Source of the DNA: Nocardioides sp.
GTDB lineage: Bacteria; Actinomycetota; Actinomycetes; Propionibacteriales; Nocardioidaceae
Assembly: GCF_030149505.1 (NCBI RefSeq)
Contig: NZ_JASBRN010000072.1
Span: 34,482 to 98,481, forward strand
Reading direction: 5' to 3'
Length of the DNA stretch: 64,000 bases
The notes under the pieces: generated by a model
The model's database searches: none
What the model was told of the DNA's origin: nothing
The model's input: the letters and a program-made list of their open reading frames with translations, nothing else
In this document: piece after piece, positions 60,057 through 64,000 of the stretch
Position numbering within the stretch: the stretch's first letter is position 1
How the letters are laid out: every line of letters begins with the position of its first letter
Program-made: the position numbers and the translations under genes

Positions 60057-60926
60057 TCAGCCGAAACGGCCGTGGACGTAGTCCGCGGTCCGGGAGTCCT
60101 GCGGGTTCTCGAACATGGCGCGGGTGTCGCCGTGCTCGACGATGACCCCCGGGGTGCCGTGTGCGGCCAGGAAGAAGGCGCACTGCGAGGAGACCCGCGC
60201 GGCCTGCTGCATGTTGTGGGTGACGATGACGATGGTGACCTCGCGGGCCAGCTCGAGCATCGTCTCCTCGATCACCCGGGTCGAGGTCGGGTCCAGGGCC
60301 GAGCAGGGCTCGTCCATCAGCAGCACCCGCGGCTTGACCGCCAGCGAGCGGGCGATGCACAAGCGCTGCTGCTGGCCACCGGAGAGCCCGCCGCCCGGTG
60401 CGTCGAGGCGGTCCTTGACCTCGTTCCACAGTCCGCCCTTGGTCAAGCAGGACTCCACGAGGTCGTCCTTCTCCGAGCGGGACGCCTTGGTGCCGGTGAG
60501 CTTCAGGCCGGCCAGGACGTTCTCCCGGATCGACATCGCCGGGAAGGGGTTGGGCTTCTGGAAGACCATGCCGATGGCCCGGCGGGCGTCGATGAGCTTC
60601 TTGGCCGGGTCGTAGATGTCCTCCCCGTCGAGCCACACCTCGCCGGCGAGCTGGGCCGAGGGGACCAGCTCGTGCATGCGGTTGAGGATGCGCAGGAAGG
60701 TCGACTTGCCGCATCCCGAGGGGCCGATGAGCGCCGTGATCGCACCGGCGGACATGGTGAGCGAGACCCGGTCGAGGACCTTGCGCTCCCCGAACCACGC
60801 CGTGATGTCGCGGGCGTCCAGCTCCGCGAGCCGCTCCGCTCCTGCGGGGGCGTCCTGGCCGGGAGCCCCGGGCACGGAGCCGCCGGGAACGGCGGGGAGG
60901 ACGGTGGTCGCGTCGGTGCTGCTCAT
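60057..60926 (-). CDS. pstB: Phosphate ABC transporter ATP-binding protein
   Basis: [63 protein letters not shown]. Confidence 0.96.
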
Positions 60927-60964
60927 CTGGGGTCTCTTTCGTGGGCGATCTGGTGCAACCGGGT

Positions 60965-61003
60965 GTGCGGGCGACCGCCCTCGCGGAGGGAGGTCGCCCG
61001 CAC
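60965..61003 (-). terminator. Hairpin between pstS-like gene and pstB
   Basis: 12-bp stem GTGCGGGCGACC / GGTCGCCCGCAC. Confidence 0.6.
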
Positions 61004-61017
61004 TGGAGGAGCCGGGA

Positions 61018-62532
61018 CTACTTCTTGACCTTCACCAGGACGGTGACGGTCTGGTCGCCGAAGGCGACGGTGTAGCGGGTGTTCTTCTTGACCTTCTTCG
61101 CCAGCAGCGTGGCCTTCCCGCCGGACAGGGTCGCGGAGTCGATCTCCTTGGCGCCCTTGAGCAGCGTGACCGTGCCGGTCGCGCCGGCGATGGTCACCTG
61201 GATCTTGGCGGTCTTGCCCTTCGCGACCGGCTTGGCCTGCGCGGCGATGTCAGCGCGGTCGGAGACCGTGACGGTGACGTCGTCGGTGGAGCCGAGGAAG
61301 CCGTCGCCGGGGTTCAGCGTGGCGGTGTAGGTCCGCGAGCCGGCCGCGACGCCGTTGAGCGTGGCGGTGGCACGACCCTGGACGATCGGGACGTCGGCGG
61401 CGACCACGGTGCTGCCCTCGGTGAAGGTCACGGTGCCGGTCGGCGTACCCGCCGCGGAGGCGACGGTGGCCACGAGCACGACCCGACCCGGCGAGGGGTT
61501 GGTGGCGGTGAGGTCGGTGGTGGTCTCGGCGACCTCGTTGACGGTGAAGTTGCTGGTCGAGGACTGGGTGGGCACGCCGCACGCACCGCCGTTGGCCTCG
61601 CGGGCGAGCTGGAAGAATCCGGCAGCCTCGATCAGCGGCGCGGCAGCGTCGGAGCAGAGGAAGCCGTCGGGGCCGAACGCCGCCAGCAGGTCGGCACGGC
61701 CGACGTCGGCGCCGCGCACCACGTTGTAGAGCGCACGGTTCGCGGAGAAACCGTCGGTGAGCTTGATGACCGGACCGGCGGCACCGGCGCGACCGGTGGA
61801 GAACGGCGCGACGGCGTTGGGGTCGGACTGGACCGGAGCCGGGTCGTGCTCCTGGACCTCCTGGACCGACGCGGCCAGCGGCACGGCCACACCGCCGTTG
61901 GCGGCCTGCAGCTGCGCGACGAAGAACGAGCGGGTGCCCGAGCCGGCCTGCGGGATGAGCGGCTTGATGACACCGGGCTGGCCGCCCAGCTCGCTCCAGT
62001 TGGTGATGCTGCCGTCGTAGATCTTGACCATGTCGGCGGCGGAGATGCTCGCCGGCGCGTTGGTCGCCACGGTGTTCGACACCGCGAGCTTGAGGCCGTC
62101 GACGGCGAAGGGGAAGTTCTGCAGGCCCGCGGCGCGCTCGGCGTCGTTGAGTCCGGAGGAGGATCGGGCGAAGTCGATCTCGGGGAGGTTGTTGGCGCCG
62201 TACAGGCGACCCTTGCCGGCGCCCGAGCCGTTGGGGCGGGTGATGGTGGTGCCACCCGGGATCGTGATCTCGCCGCCGCCGCCCGCCTGGAAGGAGGCGA
62301 TCCGGCCGGTGCTGCGGCCCTCGTTGTAACCGGCCGTGCCCTCGAAGCCCTCGGCGAGGTAGTGCATCGAGATCTCGGTGGTGTCCGAGCCGACGCCCAC
62401 CAGGTCCGCGGAGGCGGGGGTGAAGGTGGGGTCGAAGGGCAGCGCGGCCGACGCGGTCGGGGCGCTGAGGGCGATCGCCGACGCGGCGAGGGCCGCGGTG
62501 ACGAGTCCGCTGAGGGTCTTGCTCGACTTCAT
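61018..62532 (-). CDS. PstS-like periplasmic-binding-fold protein fused to C-terminal Ig-like domains, no lipobox
   Basis: [41 protein letters not shown]-term PTGTVTF.EG...GRATAT Ig-like repeats; SPase-I-type signal (ASA). Confidence 0.85.
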
Positions 62533-62651
62533 GGATTCGCTCTCTCTGGTGGGGGTGCTTCCTGGGTGGAGCCGGGTGGAGCTGCTCCGCAAGCCCCGAG
62601 ACCTGCGGCGGCGTGGTGATCGTGGGGGGCGCGAGCCGGTCACGGCAGCGA

Positions 62652-62701
62652 CTTCGGACGGGGTTGCGCGACGGTTCACGAAGGCGTCACATCACGTTCG
62701 G
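62652..62701. promoter_or_regulatory. PHO-box-like 11-nt phased repeats upstream of pstS-like gene
   Basis: CTTCG 62652, GTTGC 62663, GTTCA 62674, CGTCA 62685, GTTCG 62696. Confidence 0.4.
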
Positions 62702-63697
62702 CAGCAGTCGGACCAGGACCTCCGTCGTGGCCCAGGCCAGGGCCGCGACCACCGGGCTGGCCAGCAGCCACACCTGGACCGTCGACCAGCGCTGGCGCGC
62801 GGAGATGATGGTCAAGGTGGCGAGCACGAGGGCGGCCAGGCAGGTGGCCAGCAGCGGCAGCACCGCGGTCTCCCCGGCGAGCAGCTGCTCGGCGGCCGGC
62901 ACGGCGGCAGGTCGGCCCGCGGGTGCGGGGAAGGCGTCCTCGGCCTCGGCGTCGACGTAGACCGCCTCCCCCGGCGTCAGCCCGGCCAGACGCCCCTGAC
63001 CCTCGGCGCTGGCCAGCACGAGCCGGGCCACCCCGGTCGCGCGCGGCTGGGGCAGCGGGTCGCCGGTCCGGCGGACCCCCAGGACCCGGAACTCGCGGGT
63101 TCCCTGGGCGACGACGACCTCGATGACGTCTCCGGGCCGCAGCTCGGTGATCCGGGCGAAGGGGCCGCCGTACGTCGCGGCGCGGCCCATCACGACGGAG
63201 GTGCCGTCCTGGCCCGGGAGCACGGTGTTGCGCTGGTGACCAGGGCCGGCCCGCAGGTCGCCGGACGCCGTGCCCTCGACGACCACCTGCTCCAGGTCGA
63301 TGGCAGGGATGCGCAGCAGCGCGACCGGGGCGCCGACGGGGACCACCGGGCCCACGGGCGCCGTCGCAGCGGCTACCTCGGTGCGGAACCGGTCGTAGAG
63401 CAGGTCCTGGGAACGCTCGTGCTTGAGGTCGCCGAGCAGCAGGAGCTGGACGAACACCCACAGGCAGACCACGGCCAGCATGAAGGCGGCCGACTGCGTG
63501 GCGGCCTGCGCCCCGGTGGGCAGCGGCCGCGCCGGCCGCGGACCAGTACGGCCCCGCCGTAGCGACGAGCGGCGCGTCGGCTTCGCCAGGCGACGGGCGC
63601 GGGGCGACCGGGGCGGGCCGACAGGTGCGGCACCGGCTCCGGCGACGTCGGGTGCGACCGGCCCGGACGGGGGGCTGGCCGGCTCTGTCATCGTCAT
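62687..63697 (-). CDS. Sortase-fold membrane protein lacking catalytic His and Cys
   Basis: LLRIPAIDLEQVVVEG, GPGH..T.LPG, PF..I.ELRPGD sortase scaffold; MGRAATY instead of AGHRTTY; LVLASA instead of LTLTTC. Confidence 0.8.
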   Translation of the reverse strand: MTMTEPASPPSGPVAPDVAGAGAAPVGPPRSPRARRLAKPTRRSSLRRGRTGPRPARPLPTGAQAATQSAAFMLAVVCLWVFVQLLLLGDLKHERSQDLLYDRFRTEVAAATAPVGPVVPVGAPVALLRIPAIDLEQVVVEGTASGDLRAGPGHQRNTVLPGQDGTSVVMGRAATYGGPFARITELRPGDVIEVVVAQGTREFRVLGVRRTGDPLPQPRATGVARLVLASAEGQGRLAGLTPGEAVYVDAEAEDAFPAPAGRPAAVPAAEQLLAGETAVLPLLATCLAALVLATLTIISARQRWSTVQVWLLASPVVAALAWATTEVLVRLLPNVM

Positions 63698-64000
63698 CGG
63701 CCCAGGCCCGCCCGGGGAGGTCGGACGAAGAAGCGGCCGGCTGCGACGACGAGGGCCCCGAGCAGTCCGCCTAGGAAGAGCAGCGGCAGCAGCATCCCGG
63801 CGACCCGCGAGGAGATCGGCGTGGTCGCCGGCATCGCCACGGGCTCGGTGCTCGCCTCGACCGGGTCCAGTGCGGGCCCGGCGGCCGGCTCCTCGGCGGC
63901 GTCCGGGACCTCCGCGACCGGCACGTCGGGCAGGTCCAGCGGGCCGCCCGCGCCCCCCGGCGTACCCCCGCCTGTGGTGTCGGGTCCCTCGGTCTCCTCG
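63694..64000 (-). CDS. C-terminus of a membrane-anchored surface protein (start beyond window)
   Basis: Frame open to the window edge; Gly/Pro/Ala/Glu-rich stalk, TM, basic tail; ATGA overlap with the sortase-like gene. Confidence 0.7.
   Translation of the reverse strand, partial: EETEGPDTTGGGTPGGAGGPLDLPDVPVAEVPDAAEEPAAGPALDPVEASTEPVAMPATTPISSRVAGMLLPLLFLGGLLGALVVAAGRFFVRPPRAGLGR

Follow-up and report, generated by a model that had tools for sequence, protein, structure and literature searches.

A sortase-fold protein that lacks the catalytic residues of sortases is a conserved component of an accessory phosphate-transport operon in Actinomycetota

Sortases are enzymes that staple proteins to the cell walls of Gram-positive bacteria, and they are textbook cysteine transpeptidases. 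Here we describe a protein, referred to as pSrt, that has the sortase fold without the residues of the sortase active site. Its gene lies in a 64,000-nucleotide stretch of high-GC actinobacterial DNA (70%–77% GC) from Nocardioides sp. (assembly GCF_030149505.1, contig NZ_JASBRN010000072.1, positions 34,482 to 98,481; G000:C79:34482-98481 in our numbering), and the whole of this stretch is called the window. The gene stands among phosphate-transport (pst) genes, and a conserved, non-catalytic sortase fold is very probably a fixed component of this accessory pst operon. The gene was defined as follows:

62687-63697 of the window, minus strand: pSrt, a sortase-fold pseudoenzyme of 336 amino acids (open reading frame, Pfam and NCBIfam matches, AlphaFold2 [AF2] model, and alignments)

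The layout of pSrt comprises a disordered Arg/Pro-rich N-terminus, a transmembrane (TM) helix TM1 (residues ~69–91), the sortase barrel, two C-terminal TM helices, and a conserved tail ending in RLLPN. Residues 128–210 match the Pfam family Sortase PF04203 (E-value 2e-13; 50.5 bits against a cut-off of 26.6), over profile positions 1–84 of 125 only, and the NCBIfam class E sortase model NF033747 gives 59.9 bits, which is below its cut-off of 160. The best sequence matches in the PDB are class E sortase structures. With a divergent alignment as input, the AF2 model reached a predicted local distance difference test score (pLDDT) of 83.8 and a predicted TM-score (pTM) of 0.74, and it consists of a long N-terminal helix (62–109), an eight-stranded barrel (124–252), and extra C-terminal helices at 277–301 and 306–335. 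All of the top Foldseek matches to this model are sortases, with TM-scores of 0.6–0.74 (normalised to the target), and the pSrt family profile aligns over the whole barrel with Streptomyces avermitilis SrtE (5GO5). As modelled, pSrt has a complete sortase barrel fold.

The catalytic positions of this barrel are occupied by other residues. The segment VVMGRAATYG of pSrt aligns to AVAGHRRTYG of the class E sortase 5GO5, and R172 is therefore placed at the position of the catalytic His (H120 in SaSrtA, H251 in SrtE1). In the family-profile alignment, A231 (LVLASA) stands at the catalytic Cys of TLxTC, with LtLvtA opposite LTLTTC, and A245 stands at the catalytic Arg of 5GO5, with sgAvyVDA opposite shRliVwA. 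The His/Cys/Arg triad is required for transpeptidation (PMC5148588). The only Cys residues of pSrt are C78 in TM1 and C286 in TM2, and its only His residues are H93 and the non-catalytic H154. Class E enzymes read LAXTG by Tyr229, the Tyr after the conserved His of the beta3/beta4 loop (PMC5148588), and this Tyr (GH-Y) is replaced as well in pSrt (GPGH-Q155). Throughout the pst-linked clade described below, the position is Q, R, S, L, F, or M, as against F or Y in active relatives.

These substitutions are shared by the family. Among 151 sequences (150 cluster representatives and the query), the His position is Arg in 144 and Lys in seven, with no His, and the Cys position is Ala in 97, Ser in 31, and Val, Gly, Thr, or Glu in the rest, with no Cys. 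All 69 copies detected in the Streptomyces-type loci described below read R, then A (68 copies) or S (one copy), then a residue other than Arg. Strong conservation is found at Asp249, the non-catalytic His154, and the C-terminal P333-N334, and Thr or Ser is kept at position 230 in 147 of the 151 sequences (97%). We infer that pSrt cannot perform Cys-based transpeptidation. A first-pass annotation of the window, made from the letters alone, had described a sortase scaffold with Arg172 for His and Ala231 for Cys, Cys residues in TM segments only, and extra C-terminal TM segments, and all of this is borne out by the Pfam, AF2/Foldseek, and 5GO5 comparisons and by the positions of C78, C286, and the two terminal helices. 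It had also asked whether the loss of His and Cys extends to homologues, which it does in 151 of 151 and 69 of 69 sequences, and whether other residues could take over catalysis; no alternative nucleophile conserved across the family was found in the sequence alignments.

Class E sortases (S. coelicolor SrtE1, 5CUW; S. avermitilis SrtE, 5GO5 and 5GO6; Corynebacterium diphtheriae SrtF, 5UUS; and Thermobifida fusca SrtE) have the same beta-barrel and N-terminal membrane anchor as pSrt, together with the common motifs EGT...GPGH and G-x-x-x-[YF]G-x-PF. In contrast to these enzymes, pSrt has a replaced triad, a replaced LAXTG-reading Tyr, and two extra C-terminal TM helices, and it is encoded in a pst operon and, in this genome, without LAXTG substrates.

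The family is widespread and maintained by selection. A homologue search with pSrt returned 689 matches, and the named ones in the top 120 are all from Nocardioides and are labelled "sortase" or "class E sortase"; an exhaustive search gave 249 clusters (50% identity) below 1e-30, most of which match via the C-terminal helices. In a scan of named genomes, at least 562 species carry a pSrt relative. Carriers include Nocardioidaceae (Nocardioides and Aeromicrobium), Micrococcales (Cellulomonas and Cryobacterium), Jiangella, Micromonosporaceae, Pseudonocardiales, and many Streptomyces, as well as Frankiales, Nanopelagicales, and Acidimicrobiia. The ratio of nonsynonymous to synonymous substitution rates (dN/dS) of pSrt is 0.164 when it is compared with the nearest named relative, at 87% identity (range for neighbouring genes, 0.054–0.130), and the pSrt gene is under purifying selection. 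Given a dN/dS of 0.16 and the absence of His and Cys at these positions in 150 cluster representatives, the loss of the triad is not a product of decay.

When 401 genomes from across the phylum were searched with the profile, full-length matches (E-value ≤1e-41, C-terminal helices covered) turned up in 22 of them, and the ordinary class E sortases of this sample match the profile only up to about position 230. The homologues fall into grades. Grade A proteins have R and A at the His and Cys positions, no catalytic Arg, Asp249, and an LLPNLL tail. Grade B proteins have R and S, keep the catalytic Arg in three of five cases, and end in an LLPST-type tail. Grade C proteins have H, C, and R, a C-terminal extension as in pSrt, and an LLPA tail, and grade D comprises the ordinary class E sortases. 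The 20 pst-linked proteins of grades A and B group together on a long stem in a maximum-likelihood tree (100/99 support). Within this clade, the Ser-type grade B proteins are basal and the Ala-type grade A proteins are nested (98/94), and grade C falls outside. Because grades A and B form one clade and grade C lies outside it, catalysis was lost once, in a sortase that already bore the C-terminal extension. His changed to Arg and Cys to Ser first, followed by the change of Ser to Ala and the loss of Arg, and all sampled pst-linked copies share a single ancient origin from active sortases with the same C-terminal segment. The nearest outgroups are active class E-like sortases (L053–L056 and L025) that resemble pSrt in overall architecture and in the C-terminal extension with its LLPA tail. 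Unlike pSrt, they retain AGHRT, TL(M/T)(A/T)C, and Q-R, and no pst genes were found near L053–L056, the four loci examined with wide flanks.

The genomic context ties this fold to phosphate transport. In the genome studied here, pSrt belongs to a set of seven genes, namely pstC, pstA, PstS_TM, Big, pSrt, PstS_Ig, and pstB, which extends beyond the window; genes in the flank were chosen by a frame plot of third-codon-position GC (GC3). The partners seen in whole or in part in the window, and the full Big gene, are located as follows:

63694-64000 of the window, minus strand: 3' end of Big, its last 101 codons; the stop overlaps the pSrt start (ATGA) and the Big start lies beyond the window
G000:C79 98175-100793 (2176-4794 of locus L003), minus strand, flank beyond the window: the full Big gene, encoding a secreted protein of ~872 amino acids
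61018-62532 of the window, minus strand: PstS_Ig, 504 amino acids from MKSSKTL, with PBP_like_2 and Big_3_5 domains
60057-60926 of the window, minus strand: pstB, the ATP-binding subunit (TIGR00972)

The first-pass annotation had proposed that the upstream flank be read for pstC and pstA, and both are present there above their cut-offs (TIGR02138, 250.6 bits against 196.45, and TIGR00974, 206.1 bits against 193.45). TIGR00972 is by far the best match of pstB at 335.5 bits, slightly below the cut-off of 343.2, and the 550-residue PstS_TM scores 188.3 bits with TIGR00975 (cut-off 205). Stop and start codons overlap at pstC/pstA (TGATG), pstA/PstS_TM (GTGA), PstS_TM/Big (GTGA), and Big/pSrt (ATGA), and pSrt is translationally coupled to the four genes upstream of it in this genome. 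A gap of 150 nt precedes PstS_Ig.

This arrangement is not peculiar to one strain. The eight-gene order is identical in two Nocardioides genomes at 58%–59% identity. In the phylum sample, pst genes adjoin all 12 grade A and all five grade B loci, and none were found at the grade C loci examined. When loci were seeded with pSrt, 49 had enough flank, and they contain Big (49), PstS_TM (48), pstA (47), a PBP/immunoglobulin (Ig) protein (47), pstC (46), and pstB (46), nearly all on the same strand and in three gene orders. The reciprocal search with Big found a relative in at least 591 genomes; the best 80 loci are mostly from Streptomyces, and full-length pSrt is encoded in 68 of the 69 with enough downstream sequence. 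The sole remaining locus, L147 (Streptomyces sp. NPDC057682), showed no sortase-like gene within 10 kb downstream of Big. Linkage to pst genes therefore holds across the phylum and in both seeding directions. Homologues and linkage alike support the earlier proposal that a catalytically dead sortase fold is conserved and belongs with a cluster for phosphate acquisition.

Some variation was seen at the Big–pSrt junction. Loci L046 (4940-7910) and L047 (5559-8484) from other genomes carry three or four extra genes between Big and pSrt. Their products include an Ig-domain protein of the He_PIG type, and others that match WxLIP_PGBD (peptidoglycan-binding) weakly and continue into a TM helix with a charged tail on the cytoplasmic side. 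In the metagenomic protein P0198 (1211 amino acids, a single gene call), a Big homologue that is complete up to its TM helix and basic tail is joined to a complete pSrt via a cytoplasmic linker of ~35 residues; the topology is feasible, and the protein could be either a real Big–pSrt fusion, which would favour a link between the two, or the result of a stop lost at the ATGA overlap. Another apparent fusion, the 843-residue frame of L052 with PstS-like and sortase domains, was rejected as natural, as its residues 400–525 are Arg-rich and look out of frame and a start with a GGAGG Shine-Dalgarno sequence occurs at M527.

The products encoded around pSrt are of the phosphate-binding type. In Big, a signal peptide is followed by an N-terminal region rich in beta structure and Cys, and then by a PstS-fold domain that a disordered linker of ~60 residues connects to a TM helix and a basic tail. 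Its C-terminal end reads ...MPATTPISSRVAG followed by the TM helix and RPPRAGLGR. A model of a Big orthologue (pLDDT 83.7, pTM 0.80) places the PstS-fold domain at a TM-score of 0.82 to Mycobacterium tuberculosis PstS3. A phmmer search of Big against PDB sequences gave no match, and the domain was revealed by fold comparison only. The N-terminal region of ~300 residues has no match in Pfam or among PDB sequences, and it contains the invariant residues C119, C137, C256, C262, C338, and C367 (numbering of the L058 orthologue). PstS_TM begins with a signal peptide, and its Gly-rich linker is followed by a C-terminal TM helix and an RRR tail; it retains the phosphate-binding motifs GTGST, GGGSTKGR, and RADGSGTT. 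PstS_Ig retains the Ser/Gly loops without Arg-x-Asp, and it has a signal peptide but lacks both a lipobox and a C-terminal anchor. All 65 of 65 Big orthologues and every PstS_TM orthologue read terminate in a TM helix and a basic tail. The pre-TM segment of PstS_TM has an x-P-x-[TS]-L-like motif, whose Pro occurs in about 11 of 15 lineages, and in nearly every lineage read the helix has a Pro at its cytoplasmic end. Big shows an [AT]-T-P motif, and a Pro stands where its helix begins on the outer side.

The first-pass annotation had read the gene upstream of pSrt as an ATGA-coupled, membrane-anchored stalk protein with MPATT rather than LPXTG ahead of its TM segment, and the genes downstream as a secreted PstS-Ig fusion and pstB. 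The overlap, the membrane anchor, the lack of an LPXTG-type tail, and the identity of both downstream genes all stand. The description of Big as a mere stalk does not, since Big is itself a PstS-fold protein.

The operon may be under the control of the Pho regulon. PHO boxes are 11-nt direct repeat units upstream of pstS (PMC7866108). The 230-bp region upstream of pstC contains GTTCCCCgacaGTTCACC, which is the sole match at ≤1 mismatch in 18 kb (0.03 expected), with three further 11-nt units in a run nearby, and a perfect GTTCACCCCGCGTTCAC precedes the canonical pstS of this genome. The repeats of the pSrt operon occupy G000:C79 104866-104882 and 104974-105001. Matches at ≤3 mismatches are no commoner than chance across the locus, and meaning is attached solely to the 1-mismatch site in combination with its position. 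The PHO-box-like repeat before pstC thus indicates putative Pho-regulon control.

The canonical pstS is part of a second pst operon on contig C49, and it encodes an ordinary lipoprotein with an LALSAC lipobox and no C-terminal helix. Because the C49 operon has a normal lipoprotein PstS, the pSrt operon is an accessory system with distinct anchoring. Like canonical PstSCAB (the C49 operon and Streptomyces pstSCAB), it has pstC, pstA, pstB, a PstS with intact phosphate-binding motifs, and upstream PHO-box-like repeats. Unlike in canonical PstSCAB, a C-terminal helix on a Gly-rich stalk, and not a lipid, tethers its PstS to the membrane, and the stretch from pstA to pstB also encodes two more proteins related to PstS and the dead sortase.

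As a conserved dead fold is encoded beside tethered PstS-type proteins in a pst operon, the most likely role of pSrt is to bind or organise those neighbours without cutting them. We propose that a vestigial substrate groove, with the conserved R172, T/S230, and D249, and the C-terminal TM segments would hold the anchor regions of Big and PstS_TM uncleaved. Each held anchor would comprise the Pro-containing pre-TM motif, the TM helix with its conserved Pro, and the basic tail. In operons that also encode an LAXTG-bearing Ig-domain protein, its anchor may be held by pSrt as well. Phosphate-binding proteins tethered on stalks would thereby be kept in order about the PstCA permease. The first-pass annotation had suggested a scaffold or chaperone for assembling or retaining non-lipidated phosphate-binding proteins at the surface; such a role would fit these data, but with a change of clients. 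Big and PstS_TM, the upstream pair of PstS-fold proteins with C-terminal helix anchors, are likelier clients than the unanchored PstS_Ig. Taken as one statement, mechanism included, namely that pSrt cannot perform Cys-based transpeptidation and that, by holding client anchors uncleaved, it serves an accessory Pst system regulated by phosphate starvation as its dedicated subunit or assembly factor, this proposal has in our judgment an even chance of being correct. A wider version is more speculative and, on balance, doubtful: pSrt may be the organising subunit of an unrecognised, envelope-spanning phosphate-scavenging machine, whose groove evolved from cutting sorting signals to gripping them non-covalently, and which holds several PstS-fold proteins on long flexible stalks (in some lineages together with a wall-anchored Ig protein) such that phosphate is passed inward to PstCA.

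Several points weigh against a client-holding role. Binding between pSrt and its clients is something that we infer. The pre-TM motifs are degenerate, with Pro in only about 11 of 15 PstS_TM lineages, and they differ between Big and PstS_TM. The C-terminal extension is shared with active relatives and is therefore ancestral and not a client-specific adaptation. Thr/Ser230 is 97% conserved, and residual or altered chemistry is possible in the basal branch because it has Ser at the Cys position and the catalytic Arg in three of five proteins. Finally, PstS_Ig has no anchor and would therefore need to be recruited in another way.

The same residues raise the possibility that pSrt is a cryptic enzyme, in which a hydroxyl nucleophile (Thr/Ser230 or Ser231) and Arg/Lys172 process C-terminal anchors, for example by releasing the helix or attaching the protein to the wall. 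Such chemistry would fit the retention of Thr/Ser230 in 147 of 151 sequences, the invariably basic position 172, the Ser and partly retained Arg of the basal pst-linked branch, and the tripartite, sorting-signal-like tails of the clients. However, most members of the family have Ala, Val, or Gly in place of the Cys, such that no nucleophile is conserved there, and Thr230 is the Thr of canonical TLxTC and hence inherited rather than new. Arg is also a poor general base and Lys is found in only seven of 151 sequences, the catalytic Arg is gone throughout the derived clade, and the client tails have no conserved cleavable motif. We therefore consider a cryptic enzyme unlikely.

Sorting signals near pSrt bear on a further alternative, in which pSrt serves as a decoy or adaptor for real sortases by binding LAXTG-type signals, either passing the Ig protein to a housekeeping class E sortase or shielding operon proteins from being cut. 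Where the gene order is the longer one, the neighbour immediately upstream of pSrt frequently carries a true sorting signal at its end, such as LAQTG (Jiangella), LPRTG (Dactylosporangium), or LASTG (Cryobacterium and Streptomyces), and an LAXTG-type gene is present in 53 of the 69 Streptomyces-type loci. One of these LAXTG-type neighbours passes the TIGR01167 cut-off, and several carry Big_3_5 Ig domains like those fused to the PBP domain in PstS_Ig of the window. This proximity favours a decoy or adaptor, but an LAXTG gene is missing from Nocardioidaceae-type operons generally. No LAXTG or LPXTG tail was found on any open reading frame of the pSrt locus studied here, where the tails of operon proteins read MPATT... 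and YADPSTIL.... No class E sortase was found in this genome either, the only other sortase-domain gene being class F-like. Moreover, the Tyr with which class E enzymes read LAXTG is lost from pSrt, and the invariant partners of pSrt are Big and PstS_TM rather than the LAXTG protein. A decoy or adaptor function is accordingly judged improbable.

The class F-like enzyme (VIAGH...LVLVSC; 2375-4486 of locus L004, G000:C50) is the only intact sortase of the genome. Its gene directly follows that of a 469-residue secreted protein ending in ...AGPGDDGLGAGGNLALLALVALSAGAGVASYRRSLRA, which is its likely substrate and has no obvious LPXTG motif.

Sortases bind lipid II as a second substrate, and pSrt could keep this peptidoglycan-precursor site and position the transporter at wall sites, perhaps with an SLT-like enzyme encoded after pstB:

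59262-60008 of the window, minus strand: SLT_2 (lytic-transglycosylase-like) gene after pstB, recognised by a domain match and present in 29 of 49 related loci

We regard such a module for binding the wall or lipid II as very unlikely, as nothing specific supports it, the SLT linkage is partial, and pSrt co-occurs strictly with Big and PstS_TM. Strain-specific decay or a sequencing error in an ordinary class E sortase, as the database names might suggest, was rejected as practically negligible, since the triad is lost family-wide by the same substitutions in hundreds of species, dN/dS is 0.16, the proteins form one well-supported clade, and the reading frame is intact.

A literature search found no description of a Cys-less sortase, a sortase-derived pseudoenzyme, or a sortase gene in a pst operon. 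Other pseudoenzymes, for example iRhoms and pseudokinases, offer an analogy, and pSrt would resemble these in that a catalytic fold is kept under selection after the loss of catalytic residues, presumably for client binding. As a statement of function, the database label "sortase" or "class E sortase" is very probably wrong for this family. Instead, pSrt marks a widespread seven-gene variant of the Pst system with three PstS-related proteins, in which a C-terminal helix on a stalk takes the place of the lipid. If the wider, envelope-spanning reading holds, pSrt would be the first functional sortase-derived pseudoenzyme, and monoderm bacteria would have a previously unrecognised means of anchoring their substrate-binding proteins. 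Understanding this system would help to explain how actinobacteria of soil and freshwater scavenge phosphate across a thick wall and how pseudoenzymes evolve from enzymes that process surface proteins, and it would inform genome annotation.

Further elements were noted at the ends of the operon. A hairpin without a U-tract lies directly 3' of the PstS_Ig stop, about 40 nt before pstB:

60965-61003 of the window, minus strand: GC-rich hairpin with a 17-bp stem (-41.4 kcal/mol, z -4.25; none of 200 shuffles as stable)

This hairpin is possibly a partial terminator or a stabiliser of mRNA, and the balance between the mRNAs for the binding protein and for pstB may depend on it, as has been reported between pstS and pstC in Streptomyces. 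At the end of the operon, the wall-cutting SLT_2 enzyme may help large surface proteins through the peptidoglycan. Just upstream of the operon and on the same strand, genes of the HAD hydrolase and inositol-monophosphatase families (9010-10600 of locus L003, G000:C79) form a pair that is also present in Nocardioides locus L006, and their products may be phosphatases linked to phosphate scavenging.

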